From contig CAYHEC010000017.1 in the NCBI GenBank assembly GCA_964355675.1, positions 4,310 through 68,309 of the forward strand: a DNA stretch of 64,000 nt, in the 5' to 3' direction. Below are positions 32,290 to 48,350 of this stretch, piece by piece. The DNA is from an uncultured Caldithrix sp. (GTDB taxonomy: Bacteria; Electryoneota; AABM5-125-24; Hatepunaeales; Hatepunaeaceae). Under the pieces are notes generated by a model, which was not told the origin of the DNA, made no database searches, and saw only the letters and a program-made list of their open reading frames with translations. How positions within the stretch are numbered: the first letter of the stretch is position 1; each line of letters starts with the position of its first letter. The translations under genes and the position numbers were made by a program.

Positions 32290-32604
32290 ATGAACCTATT
32301 TCCGACTCCGCATCTTCTTGGTAACGCGTTACTTGATGAAGAACGAGAGAAGCATATTCTGATTCGTCATCCTGAATTATCCCGTGATCATCTTGAATTG
32401 ATTGGTGATGTACTTCTTAGACCAGACAACGTGAGAAGTAGCTCCCGCGATCATACAGCCTTGCTATTCTCAAGGTATTTCCCGGATTTTATGGGTGGCA
32501 AGCACATTGTTGTTGTCGTTGTTTCCAATTCCCTGACAGCCGCACATCGAATAATAACAGCCTATGTCACGAGGCGAATAATTGAAGGACACAAAAATGT
32601 CTAA
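32290..32604 (+). CDS. Small hypothetical protein, upstream partner of a DUF2283-like gene (possible toxin-like component)
   Basis: 104 aa; 8-bp overlap with the next small gene; no confident family. Confidence 0.4.
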   Translation: MNLFPTPHLLGNALLDEEREKHILIRHPELSRDHLELIGDVLLRPDNVRSSSRDHTALLFSRYFPDFMGGKHIVVVVVSNSLTAAHRIITAYVTRRIIEGHKNV

Positions 32605-32830
32605 CAGACTTACGATTACATACGACCGTGAAGGGGACATTCTTTACATAAATCGGATGGAACCTTATCCTGAGCAGGATTCAGAGGAAGTTGGCGACGA
32701 AGTCGTCGCACGATTGAATCCAATCACCCATGAAATTGAGAACCTTGAGTTGCTTTTCTTTTCGACGCGTCTCCTTAGAAAGGACGTCTTGGAATTGCCT
32801 ATTGAGGCAGAAATGCGGATGGCAGGATAA
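32597..32830 (+). CDS. DUF2283-like small protein (possible antitoxin-like partner)
   Basis: MSNRLTITYDREGDILYI...ITHEIENLELLF pattern typical of the DUF2283 family. Confidence 0.5.
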   Translation: MSNRLTITYDREGDILYINRMEPYPEQDSEEVGDEVVARLNPITHEIENLELLFFSTRLLRKDVLELPIEAEMRMAG

Positions 32831-32835
32831 GAAAG

Positions 32836-32863
32836 AGCCGTCAACCCTCCGGGGTTGACAGCG
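32836..32863 (+). terminator. GTCAACC-family terminator hairpin
   Basis: agccgtcaaccctccggggttgacagcgg. Confidence 0.6.
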
Positions 32864-32898
32864 GATCACTGGCTATTACTGATCGGTATCGGAGAAAG

Positions 32899-33783
32899 AT
32901 GAAACTTACATTGAAAAGCTTGGCTCAAAAAGTTCTTGAGGAAGCGAAAACCCCACTATCAGCAAATGAGATCTGGGAGGTTGCCAAAGAAAAAGGTTAT
33001 GATGGGGAATTACAGTCGATTGGGAAAACCCCATGGATGTCGATCTCAGCGCAAATCTATCGAGAACTCGTTTTGAAGCCTGAAAGTTCAATATTTGAAT
33101 TATTTGGAGAAAACCCTCGTCGCATCAAGCTTCGATCTTCCACAATTGTAACATCCAATGTACTTACTGAAACCTTCTCTACACCTGATTCAGTCAGTGA
33201 ACGAGACTCTTATCCCGAAGTCGCGAGGTTCATTCGGCGTCAATTCGGCGCATACTCAAAGATTATTGATGATCGAAAATCAAAGAAGGGTAAAAAAGGT
33301 GAGAATGAGTGGATGCATCCCGATATAGTTGCGTGTTACTTTCCATTCGAAGATTGGAATACTGAAGTGTATGATTTAGCACGACAACTTACAGGAACTC
33401 CTCAGAGGCTTTATGCATTCGAAGTTAAAAAGGAGATTCGATACGGGGATTTACGACAATCCTATTTTCAAGCTGTCTCAAACTCTTCATGGGCTAATGA
33501 AGCATACTTAGTAGCAGCCAATTTTCCAGATAAAGATGAGGATTTTATCGAAGAACTAAGAAGATTATCTGCTGCGTTTGGTATCGGAATTATCGAGCTT
33601 GATAAGAAAGACCCAGAAGCATCCTTGATTATTGTTGGTGCTCGCTACAACGAACAGCTTGACTGGATTACGATCAACAAAATTGCTGGATTGAATCCTG
33701 ATTTTAAGGACTTTATTACAAAAGTTGGGAAGGATTCTTCAACCAAAAACGTTAGCAAAGAGTGGTACCAGAAGGTTGAGTAG
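32899..33783 (+). CDS. HARE-HTH domain fused to a PD-(D/E)xK restriction-endonuclease-like domain
   Basis: N-terminus KVLEEAKTPLSANEIWEVAKEKGY...GKTPWMSISAQIYREL (HARE-HTH-like); C-terminus HPDIVACYF ... YAFEVKKE (D...ExK). Confidence 0.55.
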   Translation: MKLTLKSLAQKVLEEAKTPLSANEIWEVAKEKGYDGELQSIGKTPWMSISAQIYRELVLKPESSIFELFGENPRRIKLRSSTIVTSNVLTETFSTPDSVSERDSYPEVARFIRRQFGAYSKIIDDRKSKKGKKGENEWMHPDIVACYFPFEDWNTEVYDLARQLTGTPQRLYAFEVKKEIRYGDLRQSYFQAVSNSSWANEAYLVAANFPDKDEDFIEELRRLSAAFGIGIIELDKKDPEASLIIVGARYNEQLDWITINKIAGLNPDFKDFITKVGKDSSTKNVSKEWYQKVE

Positions 33784-33940: not shown

Positions 33941-34018
33941 GCACCCCGGTAGCTCAATAGGATAGAGTCCCACCCTCGTAAGTTGGAGGTTGCGGGTTCG
34001 AATCCAACGTGGGGTGCG
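33941..34018 (+). tRNA. tRNA-like gene (candidate tRNA-Thr, anticodon CGT), irregular
   Basis: 7-bp acceptor GCACCCC/GGGGTGC, D-arm GCTCAATAGGATAGAGT, T-loop GGTTCGAATCC, anticodon loop CTCGTAA; spacing irregular (4 nt between acceptor and D-stem, weak T-stem). Confidence 0.5.
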
Positions 34019-37934: not shown

Positions 37935-38498
37935 ATGCGGAACGAAACTATTGAAATCAAGTTACCTATCACAGATGATACAGCGCGAGCCCTCGTAGCT
38001 GGAGATGCAGTCAGCCTAAGTGGCGTTATGTTCTCAGCGCGTGACGCCGCTCATAAAAAGCTGGTCGATCTGCTCGACGCCGGAGAGCCTTTGCCAATCG
38101 AGATTGCCGGGCAGACTATCTATTATATGGGGCCTTCACCCGCCAAACCGGGATCCGTTATTGGATCAGCCGGCCCAACTACCAGTTACCGGATGGACGC
38201 TTATGCTCCGACTTTGATCGCTATCGGATTGAGGGGGATGGTCGGCAAAGGTGAGCGAGGTTCCAATGTTGTTGAGGCTATGAAACAACATGGTGCAGTT
38301 TACTTCGCCGCAACTGGTGGAGCCGCGGCTCTGATCTCTCAGTCCATTATCGAAGCCGAGGTCGTAGCTTTTCCAGAGCTTGGGCCGGAAGCGGTACGTA
38401 GGCTCGTCGTTAAAGGCTTTCAAGTCATTGTCGCACAAGATTCGCACGGCGGGAATCTCTATAAGGACGGGGTGGAACGATATCGTGATGCATCGTGA
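37935..38498 (+). CDS. Fe-S hydro-lyase beta subunit (class I fumarate hydratase / tartrate dehydratase C-terminal domain)
   Basis: GQTIYYMGPSPAKPG...GLRGMVGKGERG...VYFAATGGAAAL; 187 aa; no alpha subunit adjacent. Confidence 0.7.
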   Translation: MRNETIEIKLPITDDTARALVAGDAVSLSGVMFSARDAAHKKLVDLLDAGEPLPIEIAGQTIYYMGPSPAKPGSVIGSAGPTTSYRMDAYAPTLIAIGLRGMVGKGERGSNVVEAMKQHGAVYFAATGGAAALISQSIIEAEVVAFPELGPEAVRRLVVKGFQVIVAQDSHGGNLYKDGVERYRDAS

Positions 38499-38517
38499 AG
38501 GAAATTAAGGAGTTGAA

Positions 38518-39585
38518 ATGATTGAATATATTCGACTTAAAAACCTGACAGCATTCAAAAACTTTGAATGGAAGGCCACCGGCGCTTTGAATGGTAAAGA
38601 CGCAGGTGCGTTGAATGTTATTGTTGGGATAAATGATACAGGCAAAACCCACCTTCTAAAATTCCTCTATGCTTTTGCAAAAAGTTATGAGGGACATTCG
38701 AAGGGTGGGATTGGCTCAGGCTCATGGGCGAAACTTCTTGCAGACAAGCTTCTAAAGGTATTTTTGCCTCACGCGGACGCATTGAATTCCTTGATAAGTA
38801 ATGGTGCACCTCGTTTGGATTCATATATCCGTTTCAATGATGAAAATTTGCATTTTTCCTTTGGCAAAGATACGACCTCGACTATTACTGATTGCGAGAG
38901 TTATATCAAACCTGATAAAGAGCTACGGGTTCTTTTCTTTCCTCCAAAAGAAGTGCTTACAACACATCAGGCACTCACGGCGCTATTGCAAGACTCCGAT
39001 TATCAATCATGGGGATTCGATGCAACCTATTACGACTTGATTGATGCACTTAGGAGACCAGGGGCGAAAGGTAATGTTAATAAGAGTCTTACAGATTCTA
39101 AAGTTAAGCTTGAAGAGTTATTGAACGGACACTTCGAGTACATAAATGACAATGAGTTCCTGTTCTATCGAACTGGAGCTAAAGAGCCATCAAGGATGTG
39201 GCAAACTGCAGAAGGATATAAGCGTATCGGTATTCTTACTCTCCTCGTGAATAGCCGTTGGATTCGTAAGGGTTCAATCCTATTTTTCGATGAACCGGAA
39301 GCCAACCTACATCCGATGGCAGCGAGGGTAATGGCACAAATTCTATTCAATTTTGCACAAGCGGGCGTTCAGATCTTCCTTTCAACGCATAGCTATTTCA
39401 TTCTCAAACAACTTGAGTTGTTGGCACGTAAAGAGGATTTCAGTATCCCCACATGTTCGCTTGTCAAAGGAGCTTCAGGTATTGAGGCAATTTTCGCTAA
39501 CCTCAAGAATGGAATGCCTGAGAATTCTATTGTAGATGAATCGGTTGCTATGTTCGAGGAAGATCTTCAACTTGAATTGGAGTAA
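38518..39585 (+). CDS. ABC/AAA_21-type ATPase (defence-system-like)
   Basis: Walker A GINDTGKT, Walker B ILFFDEPEANLHP, H-loop LSTHS; 355 aa; AT-rich relative to flanks. Confidence 0.7.
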   Translation: MIEYIRLKNLTAFKNFEWKATGALNGKDAGALNVIVGINDTGKTHLLKFLYAFAKSYEGHSKGGIGSGSWAKLLADKLLKVFLPHADALNSLISNGAPRLDSYIRFNDENLHFSFGKDTTSTITDCESYIKPDKELRVLFFPPKEVLTTHQALTALLQDSDYQSWGFDATYYDLIDALRRPGAKGNVNKSLTDSKVKLEELLNGHFEYINDNEFLFYRTGAKEPSRMWQTAEGYKRIGILTLLVNSRWIRKGSILFFDEPEANLHPMAARVMAQILFNFAQAGVQIFLSTHSYFILKQLELLARKEDFSIPTCSLVKGASGIEAIFANLKNGMPENSIVDESVAMFEEDLQLELE

Positions 39586-39590
39586 CAACT

Positions 39591-40127
39591 TTGAATCTTA
39601 AATGGCACGACGATGAGTCAGGTGTAGAATTAGGTCTCCCCGACAAGGATCATTTTCGATTTCAGGACTGTGAAGCCTATAATAAGGTGAAAGGAATGGG
39701 AATCAAGGAGATGGATTTCTGCTGGTGGAATCAAACGAAGGATTCTATCTATTTACTAGAAGCATTAGACACCAAGAAGGATTCATCTCAGGAAATATTA
39801 CTCAAAATTGTTGTAAAGGGTTTGGACAGCTTACTGTTATTGTTAGCTGTTTGGATGGATACAAGGTTCGGTGAAAGTTTGGGTTCGGAATTACCCAAAT
39901 CCTTTCCAACAGCAATTCCAACGAAATTCATATTTATTTTCATTTTACGGACTCGATCAGGCCATGCGGTAAGTTCGGATAAAAAAGGGCAATTTGCACC
40001 TTATCAAGATAAAGCAAGGTCCAGACTCCGTAGTCGATTAGGTCTCTTTTCTGGGAATCCAAGATTAGTAATTGATGATAAAGAATCAATTATAAGAATC
40101 GCTCTTGGTGATGCTGTGATTAGATGA
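39591..40127 (+). CDS. Hypothetical 178-aa protein, partner of the ATPase
   Basis: 5-nt gap after the ATPase gene; same AT-rich composition; no recognisable family. Confidence 0.45.
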   Translation: MNLKWHDDESGVELGLPDKDHFRFQDCEAYNKVKGMGIKEMDFCWWNQTKDSIYLLEALDTKKDSSQEILLKIVVKGLDSLLLLLAVWMDTRFGESLGSELPKSFPTAIPTKFIFIFILRTRSGHAVSSDKKGQFAPYQDKARSRLRSRLGLFSGNPRLVIDDKESIIRIALGDAVIR

Positions 40128-41564: not shown

Positions 41565-41660
41565 AGAGCCGCTGTCACACGTCCCGGGTTAATAAAGTGC
41601 TGCTGTCACACGTCCCGGGTTAATAAAGTGTTGCTGTCACACGTCCCGTGTGACAGCCCT
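41565..41660. repeat. Tandem ~31-bp direct repeats (2.6 copies) ending in a palindrome
   Basis: (c)tgctgtcacacgtcccgggttaataaagtg x2, then gctgtcacacgtcccgtgtgacagc. Confidence 0.8.
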
Positions 41661-41700: not shown

Positions 41701-42282
41701 TTGCAAAAGTTATTATTACATATCTGCTGCGCGCCAGATGCGTCGGTTGCCGTCGAAAGACTGCGCGACCGCTATGATCTGACCGGTTATTTCTATAATC
41801 CCAATATAGAGCCACTTACCGAATATGCTCTTCGGGAAGCAGAGGCTCGACTGCTCTCAGCAGTACTCCATTTCAAGTACCTTGAGACTCAACCACTTCG
41901 TGACGAGTGGTTTGAACTCTGCTCTCCCTTTTCCTCCGAACCCGAACGAGGTGAGCGTTGCCGCGTTTGCATTTCTCACCGTCTTAAAACAACAGCCCAA
42001 TGCGCTGTTGTTCATGGAATTACCCATTTCACAACAACTCTTACTACTTCTCCACATAAAGACGTTGACTTCATCCACGAAACTGGCGAAATTTTGGCAA
42101 ATGAATTCGGACTGATCTATCTTCCCGAGACATTTCGCGCGCGCGATGGATTTCGGCGCAGTCTCGAGCTTTGTCGGGAATACAATTTATACCGCCAGAA
42201 CTACTGCGGATGTCGCTGGAGTCAGAGAAATGGCGAACGTGTACTGCCCAAAGAGTCTGATATCATCGTTCGCAGATCATGA
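41701..42282 (+). CDS. queH: Epoxyqueuosine reductase QueH-like (DUF208)
   Basis: LLLHICCAP...YFYNPNIEP...QNYCGC; TTG start. Confidence 0.65.
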   Translation: MQKLLLHICCAPDASVAVERLRDRYDLTGYFYNPNIEPLTEYALREAEARLLSAVLHFKYLETQPLRDEWFELCSPFSSEPERGERCRVCISHRLKTTAQCAVVHGITHFTTTLTTSPHKDVDFIHETGEILANEFGLIYLPETFRARDGFRRSLELCREYNLYRQNYCGCRWSQRNGERVLPKESDIIVRRS

Positions 42283-43508
42283 ATTCGCTTCCGATCATCC
42301 TCGACGGCAGACCGGAGACATACTCCGATCTAGTTAACAAGGCCATCGCGGGGGCAATGGAAATCACTCGCGCCTGGCGTGAGGGCCGGGGGGATGAGGA
42401 AGCGGTCAACCAGATTGAGTCCGACGCTCGCCAAGCTGTCCGTCGAGCGTTCGATCTGCCGAATGATTGCCGGATTATATTCACTTCTTCAATTGAGGAA
42501 GCTCGGAATAGTGCCATCAAGGGGCTTGCATGGGGAGCCGGAACCAGCAGGAACGGGATAATTACCGTCGAAGGCGATCCAGCGGGGTTTGAGGAGTCGG
42601 CGATCTGGCTGGAGCGGTTTGGCTTCCGTTCGATACGGCTTCCAGTCGGAAAAGCCGGAGGGATACCTTTTCCATTGCTTGACAAGTCGGTCGATGACCG
42701 GACGGCTGTGGTGGCGTTACTCTCCACGACTCCCGAAATGTACCGCTGGCGGATACCTGAGATTCGCAAGCTGATAGCCTCGTGCGAAAGGCATGGGGCT
42801 GAATTAGTTATCGACGTTTCGGTTGAAGTGCAAGTGAAACGAATGGAATACGACTCCTCAAAAATGACACTGCTTTGCGATGGAGTTACTCTTGGCGCGC
42901 CGATTGGCGTGGCGTTTGTGGCGCTGAGACCCGGAGCCCGTTTCGGCCCATTGGTCAGCGGAGGCCTTGAGCAGGACGGTTTGCGAGCTGGAAGACTTAA
43001 CCCAGCGCTGGTTGCGGGACTTGCCGCCGCGGTGATGGAGAACGTTTCTTCTGCCGACCCCCTGCGGTCGGCAGCCAGTGGCGTTTCTTCTGCCACCCCC
43101 CCGTGGGTGGCAGCGAGTGGCGGTTCTTCTGCCACCCCCCCGTGGGTGGCAGCACTTTCCACCCTCCGCCAAACCGCCCTTCGTGAGCTTCGCCGCCGTA
43201 TTCCCTCCGCGAGGCTTGTCCATGGCGAAGCCCCCCTGCCGGTCGGGATCACCTTCGTCGTCCCCGGCGTCGAAGGCGAGGCGGTAGTGATGCTCTGCGC
43301 ACAAGAGAACGTCTTCGTCTCGACGGGATCGACCTGTTCGAAGAAGGCGGGCAAACCCTCGCCGGTACTCCTCGCCGCAGGTTTCACGACCGAGGAGGCT
43401 TCCGGGGCGATAGGGTTGACATTCCGCGCCGGGCAGACGGTTGAAGATGTGAAAATGGCGATGGAAGTTATTGGGAAGGCGGTATTAAAACTGATGGAAA
43501 TAGGATGA
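42279..43508 (+). CDS. Cysteine desulfurase-like (class V aminotransferase fold) paralog lacking the PLP lysine, with in-frame hairpin-repeat insertion
   Basis: C-terminal VSTGSTCS active-Cys loop present, but the SxHK PLP motif is replaced by LLCDGV; two 39-bp tandem palindromic units encode SGVSSATPPWVAA x2. Confidence 0.6.
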   Translation: MNSLPIILDGRPETYSDLVNKAIAGAMEITRAWREGRGDEEAVNQIESDARQAVRRAFDLPNDCRIIFTSSIEEARNSAIKGLAWGAGTSRNGIITVEGDPAGFEESAIWLERFGFRSIRLPVGKAGGIPFPLLDKSVDDRTAVVALLSTTPEMYRWRIPEIRKLIASCERHGAELVIDVSVEVQVKRMEYDSSKMTLLCDGVTLGAPIGVAFVALRPGARFGPLVSGGLEQDGLRAGRLNPALVAGLAAAVMENVSSADPLRSAASGVSSATPPWVAASGGSSATPPWVAALSTLRQTALRELRRRIPSARLVHGEAPLPVGITFVVPGVEGEAVVMLCAQENVFVSTGSTCSKKAGKPSPVLLAAGFTTEEASGAIGLTFRAGQTVEDVKMAMEVIGKAVLKLMEIG

Positions 43509-45096: not shown

Positions 45097-47067
45097 ATGA
45101 ATTTTTACTGGAGTTCTCGGTTCCATTTTGCAGTACTGATCGTGTCGTCGAATCTCGGCGCCGCTCTACTGCAGGATGGCCATGCAACAATCCCTGCCAA
45201 TCTTCCGGAACACCCCTTTATTAGAGAGCTCAGACCGGTCAATTGCCAAGGATCGAGCCTTCCTTCCCAGAGCCTGATCCGGACTAACCCTGCCCGTCTT
45301 CCTGCCAGAGATGATTCCGATGAAGATATTTCCTACTGCAACGAAGAGGATATCGAATATCTATGGACTCTTCCCGATGCATTTGGCGACCATAGTTATT
45401 TCGAACGATTCACGCCAGCGGAAGCTCCTTTTCGCCTCATCGGCTTAAGAATCGTCCTGCATAATTTATTCGGTAATGCGGGGCATCCTGACATGCGCGT
45501 TTCTATTGCTACCAGTGACCGCAATCTGCCTGATGATGAGATCGAATCATTTGTAGTGCCAACCGAGGACCTCGTCTTAAGTCCGAATGGAGATTGGTTT
45601 TGGAATGAATATCTTTTCGACGAATATGGTGTCGGTGCGATAAGGTTTGAGGAAGCGGTGGATTTCCATCTGATTATCAACATTGCACCTAATAATGACG
45701 AAGACACTCTCGCTCTCGTCACCGATGATGGTCGCCGTCGTATCGACAGGAGCGGCCTTTTCGATGGGATGGACTCAACGTATGTGCTATTCAGAAATCT
45801 TCAGGGCGTTCGTATTTCGGTGAATTTTGCGCTGGTCGCCATCGTAGAGTACGGAGACGCTCCGGTAAGACAGGTGATTTCACTCCGGGAAGGCTGGAAC
45901 ACAATCTCGCTCAATGTTTCTCCTACTGCCATCGACTGGATAGAAGATTTAGGTCCCGACCCAAGAGGTATGATACAGCAATTCCGTATCGATGATGAAC
46001 ACCACCATGTGATTATGTTGAAGGACAGATTCGGGCAATTTTGCTCTCCTCAAGACGATGTGTGGGACATTCCGTATTGGAATTTATCAGACGGTTACCA
46101 GATCAAGGTCGATGAACCCCTCCGGGGTTCGTGGACTGGAACAGCCATAGATCCACAAAGTCCGCTTCCGCTTGCCCCGGGATGGAACATGGTTCCTTAT
46201 TACCCTGAATACGAGCTATCCGCGGCTTCGCCGGAATTTGAGGTTGTGAGTTCTATTCTCGACCAACTAATCGTTGTTAAAGACGATGCTGGAAACTTCA
46301 TGCTCCCTTCGCTGAACTTTTCTAACATGGCTGATTGGCAGCCGGGGAAGGGCTACCAGATCAAAGTTGACGCCGATTGCGATCTTACCTATCCAGGCGA
46401 CGAGGGCCGGACAAATTCCCCAAGATCTGCTGACGCCCCCAAGCCAATTCATTGGTCATTAGAAGCCCCGAGTTCTGACAATATGTTGCTTTTGATAAAC
46501 TCATTCGGGGAGTCACTATTCGTGGACGGTGATGAGATTGGCGCATTTGACTCACAGGGGAGTCTCGTTGGATCTGGCGTTATTGTTGAGGGGAGGTGCG
46601 GGCTTGCTTTATGGGGCGAAGATCCATCAGGAACCGTTAAGGATGGACTTACAGTAGGCGAAGAGCCATCATTCAGGCTTTGGCGCTCAGAGAGGTCGGA
46701 AGAATCTTCACTGCTGATAAAAGATTCGCAACATGGTAAGCCTATCCGGTATGCTCGCAATGATGTTGTTGTTGGTAGCGCTGTCATCGTCGAAGCACTT
46801 CCTGAGAGGTCATCGCTTACTTCTGTTCATCCAAATCCGTTCAACAGTTTTACCCTTATTGAATATTTACTTGCCGAGTCTGGCATTGTTACTATTGTTC
46901 TCTGCGATACGCAAGGGAGAATTGTCGCCCAAATATTCGAGGGGAACAGAGAAGCTGGCAGATACATGGAAAGAGTCGATGGCGGTGAGCTTGCGGCAGG
47001 TCTCTATTTCCTTAGGATGAATGCGGGAAAATATTTAAGTATGACGAGGATTGTATTGTTGAAATGA
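45097..47067 (+). CDS. Large secreted hypothetical protein with T9SS C-terminal sorting domain
   Basis: C-terminus VHPNPFNSFTLIEYLL...GLYFLRMNAGKYLSMTRIVLLK; 656 aa. Confidence 0.65.
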   Translation: MNFYWSSRFHFAVLIVSSNLGAALLQDGHATIPANLPEHPFIRELRPVNCQGSSLPSQSLIRTNPARLPARDDSDEDISYCNEEDIEYLWTLPDAFGDHSYFERFTPAEAPFRLIGLRIVLHNLFGNAGHPDMRVSIATSDRNLPDDEIESFVVPTEDLVLSPNGDWFWNEYLFDEYGVGAIRFEEAVDFHLIINIAPNNDEDTLALVTDDGRRRIDRSGLFDGMDSTYVLFRNLQGVRISVNFALVAIVEYGDAPVRQVISLREGWNTISLNVSPTAIDWIEDLGPDPRGMIQQFRIDDEHHHVIMLKDRFGQFCSPQDDVWDIPYWNLSDGYQIKVDEPLRGSWTGTAIDPQSPLPLAPGWNMVPYYPEYELSAASPEFEVVSSILDQLIVVKDDAGNFMLPSLNFSNMADWQPGKGYQIKVDADCDLTYPGDEGRTNSPRSADAPKPIHWSLEAPSSDNMLLLINSFGESLFVDGDEIGAFDSQGSLVGSGVIVEGRCGLALWGEDPSGTVKDGLTVGEEPSFRLWRSERSEESSLLIKDSQHGKPIRYARNDVVVGSAVIVEALPERSSLTSVHPNPFNSFTLIEYLLAESGIVTIVLCDTQGRIVAQIFEGNREAGRYMERVDGGELAAGLYFLRMNAGKYLSMTRIVLLK

Positions 47068-47615: not shown

Positions 47616-48350
47616 ATGCCAGATCAAATTAAACGTCTGTTGGTAGTAATCGCGATCATAGCGGTTTGCTTCCTGGTTGTTCGAACCTTCTTCATTCCGG
47701 ATAGTTTTGGTAAGTTCGGTCATTACCGTGCCGTGTCGCTTGATTCGGTTGCGGCTCTCCCGACCAGCTATGCCGGTCACAATGCCTGTCTCGAATGTCA
47801 CGATGATATCGATCAGATCAAGAAAGCGTCTTATCATCGTACTGTAAGCTGTGAAGCATGTCATGGACCGGGTCGCGGGCATATAGAAAGTATGGGAGAC
47901 AGCGTACTGGCGGCTCCTCGCGACCGTGATTACTGCGTTTTATGTCATGGTTACAGCTCCGCCAAACCGACCGGTTTCCCACAGATAGATCCGATAGTTC
48001 ACAATCCAGTGAAACCTTGCATCACGTGTCACAATCCGCACGCCCCGGATCCACCAAGAATTCCGGGTGATTGCAGTGCCTGTCACGCCGTTATTGCACG
48101 AACCAAGGCGGTATCTCCTCACGCCCTGCTTGAATGCACTCAATGCCACATGACGCCGGAAGAACATAAGGTAAATCCCCGCATGGTCAAACCCGGGAAG
48201 CCTATCGTGCGAGCCGACTGCGGGACATGCCATGCAAAAGAGGCCGCGAGTGACAAATCGATTCCGAGGATCGATATCGAACGCCATGGTGACGGCTTCC
48301 TATGTTGGAATTGCCACTACCCCCATAATCCGGAGTCAAATAAGAAATGA
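47616..48350 (+). CDS. Membrane-anchored octaheme c-type cytochrome (NrfB/DsrJ-position electron carrier)
   Basis: N-terminal TM helix; eight CxxCH motifs in 244 aa. Confidence 0.8.
   Translation: MPDQIKRLLVVIAIIAVCFLVVRTFFIPDSFGKFGHYRAVSLDSVAALPTSYAGHNACLECHDDIDQIKKASYHRTVSCEACHGPGRGHIESMGDSVLAAPRDRDYCVLCHGYSSAKPTGFPQIDPIVHNPVKPCITCHNPHAPDPPRIPGDCSACHAVIARTKAVSPHALLECTQCHMTPEEHKVNPRMVKPGKPIVRADCGTCHAKEAASDKSIPRIDIERHGDGFLCWNCHYPHNPESNKK

Follow-up and report, generated by a model that had tools for sequence, protein, structure and literature searches.

A two-gene cassette inserted between fumB and a PP-loop gene in an uncultured bacterium is likely a HEC-02-type anti-phage system

Introduction

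Two adjacent genes in a 64-kb stretch of DNA from an uncultured bacterium (hereafter the window, that is the whole 64,000 nucleotides analysed) raise the question of what an ATPase gene and a small partner gene are doing between fumarate hydratase and a gene related to tRNA thiolation, and whether they form a defence system that nobody has described. A sequence-only reading of the window had proposed exactly this: an undescribed, horizontally inserted pair made of an ABC-type ATPase and a partner of no known effector fold. The basic observations behind that proposal are sound, as the open reading frames of 355 and 178 aa, their 5-nt spacing and the GINDTGKT and LSTHS motifs are all present at the positions given for them. 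The present analysis confirms the insertion and the defence-type character of the cassette and leads to a different answer on its novelty.

The system that has to be considered is HEC-02, a "Hma-embedded candidate" system that consists of an ABC ATPase and a NERD-like PD-(D/E)xK protein. One representative of HEC-02 was shown to defend E. coli against phages, with both of its genes needed for protection, while the way in which the ATPase senses infection is called undetermined by the authors of that work (Payne et al. 2024, bioRxiv 10.1101/2024.01.29.577857).

Organization and composition of the cassette

Gene A (38518..39585, plus strand) starts with ATG and encodes a 355-aa ABC ATPase of the HEC-02A type. 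It is followed on the same strand, after the 5 nt read directly from the sequence, by gene B (39591..40127, plus strand), which starts with TTG and encodes a 178-aa protein of the HEC-02B type, a predicted PD-(D/E)xK (restriction-endonuclease-like) nuclease. The stop codon of fumB (38496-38498) is separated from gene A by 19 nt, and a Shine-Dalgarno-like AAGGAG (38507..38512, plus strand) is found there, 9 nt past the fumB stop and 5 nt before the ATG. The ribosome-binding site of gene B, a GGAG at 39579..39582 (plus strand), is embedded in the final codons of gene A, 8 nt upstream of the TTG. At the other end, the TGA of gene B and the ATG of the PP-loop gene overlap as ATGA. Synteny and junction alignments place the whole inserted cassette, which has a GC content of 0.406, at 38499..40123 (plus strand). 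Both open reading frames are intact and the pair is identical on contigs from three other sequencing runs.

The AT-richness noted by eye in the earlier reading holds once it is computed. The reference set comprised 50 long non-overlapping open reading frames of the window, with a mean GC of 0.486 (sd 0.040) and a mean GC3 of 0.489 (sd 0.064). Gene A has a GC of 0.416 and a GC3 of 0.388, and gene B, with 0.387 and 0.341, is the lowest of the 50; both measures are thus atypical. The GC of 0.406 measured over 38499-40123 is the minimum of all 1625-nt sliding windows in the 64 kb, only 0.08% of these windows are as GC-poor as the cassette, and the 3-kb flanks reach 0.487 and 0.536. The composition of the cassette is foreign relative to the window.

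Insertion between fumB and the PP-loop gene

The genes that precede the pair, in its own orientation, encode an EF-G paralogue, a HIT protein and the fumarate hydratase beta subunit FumB (Fumerase_C, 3.6e-56). Those that follow it, also on the plus strand, encode a PP-loop protein of the tRNA-thiolation type (tRNA_Me_trans and NFACT-R_2), a protein of 96 aa, QueH and a pair of class-V aminotransferases. The same succession from fumB to queH was found in three related metagenomic genomes, L115, L094 and L093, whose FumB proteins are respectively 89%, 85% and 84% identical to that of the window. In all three, the PP-loop gene lies 43-103 nt past fumB and the 96-aa gene and queH come next, the aminotransferase genes being also visible in L093 and L094, and no ATPase or partner gene is present between fumB and the PP-loop gene. 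DNA alignments to these empty sites run up to the fumB stop codon and pick up again near codon 9 in the PP-loop gene. The segment 38499-40123 is an insertion relative to these genomes. The proposed placement between housekeeping genes is therefore correct, since relatives with empty sites exist, and the cassette was acquired horizontally.

The insert itself bears few traces of how it arrived. It contains no integrase, and searches around it for target-site duplications and for direct or inverted repeats returned chance-level short matches only. In the same way, no promoter or terminator signal above background was found around the insert, and the cassette is probably read through as part of the same-strand gene array. 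When GTDB species genomes were scanned with FumB, the best matches were 62-64% identical, and neither a close relative nor an empty site was found among them.

The neighbourhood is not a defence island: no other defence system was detectable within about ten genes on either side of the pair, and the PP-loop and 96-aa proteins have no match in PADLOC. The match of an NtrC-like regulator to RtcR/PspF is a generic family resemblance. Rfam models run over the whole window found one tRNA only and no non-coding RNA near the pair, and no retron is therefore placed there. A larger Dnd/Ssp-like or Qat-like defence module, made of the pair together with the PP-loop, 96-aa, QueH and cysteine-desulfurase genes, was considered and rejected. 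The PP-loop and 96-aa proteins, as noted, match no PADLOC model, the DndA/SspA matches of the two aminotransferases are generic IscS/NifS homology, and relatives without the pair have kept the whole downstream block.

The ATPase

Gene A matches the HEC-02A model PDLC04214 of PADLOC-DB with an E-value of 4.3e-94, residues 1-354 being aligned to positions 1-337 of the 338 of the model, and a second HEC-02A model, PDLC04213, at 3e-66. Pfam assigns it to AAA_15 (2e-19) and AAA_21 (1.7e-15), and NCBIfam yields sub-threshold ABC-type matches only. Its closest homolog is 52% identical.

The motifs of the ATP-binding site were followed in an alignment of 94 homologs. The Walker A or P-loop GINDTGKT covers residues 37-44 (38626..38649, plus strand), and its G37, N39, T41, G42 and K43 are each retained in at least 90% of the homologs. 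In the Walker B motif ILFFDEP (39277..39297, plus strand; also quoted as ILFFDEPE), D258 and E259 are invariant, as are H291 of the H-loop FLSTHS (39376..39393, plus strand) and G233 of the ABC signature, which reads A-E-G in gene A.

The AlphaFold model of the protein (pLDDT 91.6, pTM 0.92) was compared with the PDB by Foldseek, and the top matches were the retron I-A and Septu PtuA proteins together with SMC, cohesin and Rad50 heads (E 2e-12 to 4e-10, TM about 0.5). A profile search of PDB sequences with gene A returned a similar set, with retron Ec78/Eco8 ATPases, PtuA, OLD nuclease, AriA, Rad50 and GajA; no HEC-02 structure was found by sequence among the solved entries. The gene A product is a compact ABC ATPase, similar to SMC, Rad50 and PtuA and without a long coiled coil.

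The partner protein and its active site

Gene B matches the HEC-02B model PDLC04224 at an E-value of 6.5e-28 over residues 8-163 of its 178. Three further HEC-02B models match it more weakly, and PADLOC families outside HEC-02B do not match it at all. Five other PDLC04224-class partners were scanned; four of them match the model more strongly (1e-38 to 1e-52), and only the partner from L007 is weaker, at 1.8e-24. No family was found for gene B in Pfam or NCBIfam. Pfam NERD (PF08378) does not match it at E-values up to 1 and matches only two of its 112 relatives, weakly (E 0.03), so that the "NERD" label of this family is not reproduced at the sequence level. A word-index homolog search recovered gene B alone, and an exhaustive HMMER search (E <= 1e-3) recovered 181 cluster representatives, none of them more than 39% identical. 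PDB sequences gave nothing meaningful with the family profile (an OHCU decarboxylase at E 0.63).

The fold was nevertheless recognisable at the structural level. The AlphaFold model, built on 112 relatives (pLDDT 88, pTM 0.85), resembles the PD-(D/E)xK nucleases N.BspD6I, FokI, CdiA-CT and Can2, and the next structural matches were EcoT38I, Bse634I, NucS, the R.BspD6I small subunit, Cfr10I, Hachiman HamA and Avs4. Foldseek against viral structures (BFVD) gave none at E <= 0.001. The predicted fold is a restriction-endonuclease-like PD-(D/E)xK fold, and the partner is not a protein without a known effector fold, as it had been described. It is not a housekeeping protein either.

Residue conservation was counted over 113 family sequences. 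The predicted active-site strands, which were placed from family conservation and the AlphaFold strands, carry D42, E57 and position 59 (39714..39767, plus strand). In the model and the alignment, D42 opens one strand and E57-x-K59 lies on the next. Conservation further points to K76 and D79, on the helix after strand 3 (39816..39827, plus strand). D42 is kept in 113/113 sequences, E57 in 112/113, F22 in 111/113, E9 in 108/113, K76 in 107/113, E40 in 104/113, R23 in 103/113, D79 in 97/113 and K59 in 89/113. Gene B retains all of these residues but K59: it reads E57-A-L59, with a leucine in place of the ExK lysine. Tested for the (D/E/Q)xK signature, it lacks it, D42, E57 and K76 being present.

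This replacement is not an isolated case. Position 59 holds a residue other than lysine (E, T, R, F, W, I, S, G, Y or L) in 24 of the 113 sequences (about 21%), the partner from L004 for instance reading ELE at the ExK site, and all 24 retain K76. PD-(D/E)xK enzymes tolerate the replacement or relocation of the motif lysine; BamHI (ExE) and BglII (ExQ) are active enzymes of this kind without it. Because all 24 members that lack K59 keep K76, we read L59 from the alignment as a recurrent and tolerated active-site variant rather than as a sign of decay. ExK is typical but not universal in the family, and membership of HEC-02, which is based on homology, stands. Still, the activity of this predicted nuclease is not assured, since a leucine occupies the place of the canonical lysine.

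Conserved pairing and variable slots around fumB

The ATPase gene is followed by a gene for a protein of 168-180 aa, with a spacing of -4 to +13 nt, in each of the five distinct close loci (L004, L005/6, L007/8, L009/10 and L114). These partners match HEC-02B at 1.8e-24 to 7.8e-52 or else the in-house HMM of the gene B family. The conjugative plasmid pPSE7367.01 of Pseudanabaena (NC_019690) carries a 42%-identical ATPase with a gene for a 175-aa hypothetical protein 2 nt downstream. A HEC-02B gene comes immediately after the ATPase gene in 10 of the 13 IMG/VR loci that match gene A strongly, and at least three of these ten pairs come after a gene for a protein of roughly 1200 aa, which we take to be BrxC-like from its N-terminal sequence. 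With a HEC-02B gene in 5/5 close loci, on this cyanobacterial plasmid and in 10/13 viral-database loci, the pairing of this ATPase with its partner is conserved.

One of the close loci concerns the same chromosomal region. In L004, whose EF-G, FumB and HIT proteins are respectively 91%, 82% and 63% identical to those of the window, an ATPase-partner pair sits one slot to the left, between the HIT gene and fumB. It has a GC of 0.47-0.50 against 0.59-0.61 for its genome, and its proteins are 51% (A) and 31-33% (B) identical to those of the window. The window pair is no closer to it than to the pairs of L114 (52% and 38%), where no shared flanking gene is seen on the 2.1 kb available, and of L005 (48% and 36%), which has other gene neighbours. 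The HIT-fumB gap contains a Macro-domain gene in L092 and a gene for a T9SS-tail protein in L091 and L115. Since relatives hold different genes there, the spaces on either side of fumB vary within this lineage. The HEC-02 alleles of the window and of L004 seem either to have been acquired separately or to be very old residents that evolve fast.

Comparison with known defence systems

The view that the two genes form a defence-type cassette around an ABC ATPase is upheld, and both proteins match HEC-02 models. On this basis the pair is very likely a HEC-02 homolog. It shares with HEC-02 the gene order, an ATPase of about 340-355 aa and then a PD-(D/E)xK or NERD-like protein of about 170-180 aa, and the folds and ATPase motifs agree. 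On the contrary, the window copy lies outside Hma, BREX or any other defence system, between fumB and the PP-loop gene; its nuclease reads E-A-L at the ExK site; and it is very divergent, its best homologs being 52% (A) and 39% (B) identical.

Several other systems resemble the pair in part. Septu and the retron I-A PtuAB modules contain the ATPases closest to gene A in sequence and solved structure, and they likewise combine an ABC ATPase scaffold with a small nuclease encoded just downstream. However, PtuB of Septu is an HNH nuclease, while gene B has a predicted PD-(D/E)xK fold and no HNH match; gene A falls short of PtuA by about 100-200 aa and matches the PADLOC PtuA models at 9e-10 to 7e-8 with partial coverage; and neither a retron reverse transcriptase nor a non-coding RNA accompanies the window pair. 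PARIS is also a pair of ABC ATPase and nuclease. The best AriA model matches gene A at 7e-20, best over residues 230-295, where the C-terminal ABC motifs lie, and a second one (PDLC02980, built on Pfam AAA_21) at 4.3e-17 over residues 32-296; but a Toprim/DUF4435 partner is missing and gene B matches no AriB or Toprim model.

Gabija and the OLD nucleases share an N-terminal ABC ATPase region with gene A (GajA 4e-8, Old 1.6e-10), which lacks their fused Toprim domain and, as regards Gabija, an adjacent UvrD-like helicase gene. AbiL combines an ATPase with a small partner, and AbiLi matches gene A almost over its full length (5e-13, residues 1-316), but with a score far under that of HEC-02A, and gene B matches no AbiLii model. 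Other PADLOC ATPase models also detect gene A, such as PD-T4-4_A (2e-19) and NsnB (4e-18), and all models other than HEC-02A give a far lower score or a partial match. Finally, the FokI and N.BspD6I cleavage domains, CdiA-CT (EC869-type) and the nuclease domain of Can2 are 6-12% identical to gene B, which differs from this group in having no DNA-recognition, CARF or toxin-delivery domain and in the absence of the motif lysine.

The pair is thus not an undescribed system, because both of its proteins match the PADLOC HEC-02A and HEC-02B models (4.3e-94 and 6.5e-28). The type to which they belong has already been described, has experimental support from laboratory tests and can be searched for with a standard tool.

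Alternative explanations

Taken as a whole, the cassette is likely a horizontally acquired anti-phage defence system of the HEC-02 type, made of an ABC ATPase and a small PD-(D/E)xK nuclease, and we consider it probable, with slightly more reserve, that the pair serves defence in its host. The alternative that deserves most attention is that this particular copy is catalytically impaired or decaying, the K59L replacement having inactivated the nuclease, so that the pair no longer provides defence or gene B has become a nucleic-acid binder or adaptor that does not cleave. The E57-A-L59 sequence, set against ExK in 79% of the family, speaks for it, as does a HEC-02B score that is weakest but one among the PDLC04224-class partners scanned. 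A decaying pair, however, fits poorly with two intact reading frames and identical copies from three other sequencing runs, with ATPase motifs that are all preserved and with the retention of D42, E57, K76, D79, E9, F22, R23 and E40. The 24 family members of 113 without lysine at position 59, all with K76, and the activity of BamHI (ExE) and BglII (ExQ) lower its weight further, and we regard impairment as improbable.

An addiction role, with a nuclease toxin and an ATPase antidote that ensure chiefly their own maintenance, was also weighed. The Pfam description of AAA_21 mentions "AbiEii / type IV TA", genes A and B are tightly coupled, and pairs of this family occur on plasmids and in variable regions beside genes that resemble toxin-antitoxin genes, examples being the small genes downstream of fumB in L004 and the HEPN/DUF433 genes in L091. 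This is nonetheless a minor possibility, given that the HEC-02 representative provided phage-specific protection that needed both genes. It differs from the HEC-02 defence reading mostly in emphasis, because addiction and abortive infection are not mutually exclusive. Least probable of all, and close to negligible, is a core-genome housekeeping role as a Rad50/SbcC-like ATPase-nuclease in DNA repair. The fold of gene A does resemble Rad50 and SMC heads and the pair does sit in a same-strand housekeeping array without a promoter or terminator of its own. Yet three close relatives lack the pair at this locus, and its GC is the lowest in the window; the nearest gene A homologs are 52% identical against 82-91% for the flanking core proteins; a coiled-coil insertion and a Mre11/SbcD partner are lacking; and the best family match of gene A is a defence model, at 4e-94.

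Proposed mechanism

Gene B is tightly coupled to gene A in translation. By analogy with related systems, the ATPase may oligomerise, bind the nuclease and act as a sensor or regulator of infection, restraining the nuclease until a cue from the phage or a shift in ATP state licenses it to cut nucleic acid. Such cleavage would stop phage replication and possibly harm the cell. The scheme of an ATPase-gated nuclease is borrowed from Septu, PARIS, Gabija and retron I-A, since no solved ATPases are more closely related to gene A than theirs, and we give it about an even chance of being right.

Conclusions

As unknown biology the pair has low priority, because current PADLOC models would annotate it automatically. 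A bolder view, which we hold as speculative and rather unlikely, is that HEC-02B proteins without K59 have moved their catalytic lysine to the helix, as K76, or cleave in a non-canonical way, and that the slots around fumB form an integrase-free hotspot. If this were true, these slots would exchange HEC-02 alleles as well as accessory genes of the Macro-domain and T9SS-tail kind by recombination between conserved core genes.

For the family, the locus extends HEC-02 to a deep lineage without cultivated members that probably belongs to the FCB group, and indicates that a HEC-02 cassette can stand alone in an array of housekeeping genes and not only within Hma or BREX. In addition, the natural variation of the active site, in which K59 appears dispensable and K76 is invariant among the members that lack K59, offers a target for mutagenesis on the cleavage reaction of HEC-02.

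Variable cargo around fumB

In the lineage of the window's organism, the region around the fumarate hydratase beta gene (fumB) is a variable spot. The gap between the upstream HIT gene and fumB holds different cargo from one relative's contig to the next: another HEC-02 allele in L004 (1121-2677), a Por_Secre_tail protein in both L091 (3021-5936) and L115 (1-582), and a Macro-domain protein in L092 (5455-5976). In addition, two small ORFs lie 3' of fumB in L004, which we take, judging by eye from their sequences, to be a putative DUF4258/DUF2283 toxin-antitoxin pair, and HEPN_LA2681 and DUF433 genes are found in the vicinity in L091.

Other features of the window and its host

Two further low-GC genes are located immediately 5' of tRNA-Thr(CGT), the sole tRNA of the 64-kb window (genes and tRNA at window 32290-33783 and 33943-34017). 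One (104 aa, GC 0.43) gave no Pfam match, and the other (294 aa, GC 0.40) encodes a protein with an N-terminal HARE-HTH domain (PF05066, 1.3e-11); neither product was matched by PADLOC. These genes may form a second small accessory islet at the tRNA.

Tandem repeats were observed at two places. The 96-aa DUF2018-like gene and queH are separated by 228 nt, within which a 31-nt unit, GCTGTCACACGTCCCGGGTTAATAAAGTGCT, is present in 2.5 copies with 97% matches (window 41571-41648). A 39-nt repeat of 2.8 copies (window 43043-43153) lies in frame within the first class-V aminotransferase-like gene (ORF 42279-43508). This stretch is very rich in GC (0.61-0.64), and the repeat encodes recurring peptide units of the ATPPWVAA type.

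The window also contains genes for a T9SS C-terminal sorting domain (Por_Secre_tail) protein and a multi-haem cytochrome c (window 45097-47067 and 47616-48350). The best named relatives of FumB belong to Calditrichaeota (70%), KSB1 and Zixibacteria, and a search of GTDB species genomes found none above 64%. Taken together, these features suggest an FCB-group host that has not been cultivated.

HEC-02 models and genomic neighbourhoods

The PADLOC model PDLC04146 carries the label HEC-02B. Nevertheless, it matches the ATPase encoded by gene A (E 2e-43, residues 1-309) as well as the ATPase of L004 (E 2e-47), and does not match the nuclease. It appears to be mislabelled in PADLOC-DB v2.

In some contigs classed as viral, among them the IMG/VR contigs L098 (438-4004) and L103 (354-4004), HEC-02 pairs are found immediately 3' of genes of about 1200 aa, the N-termini of which, as judged by eye, presumably resemble BrxC/PglY. 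The plasmid match H8 overlaps an annotated brxC. Both observations agree with the published pattern of HEC-02 being 'embedded in BREX'.
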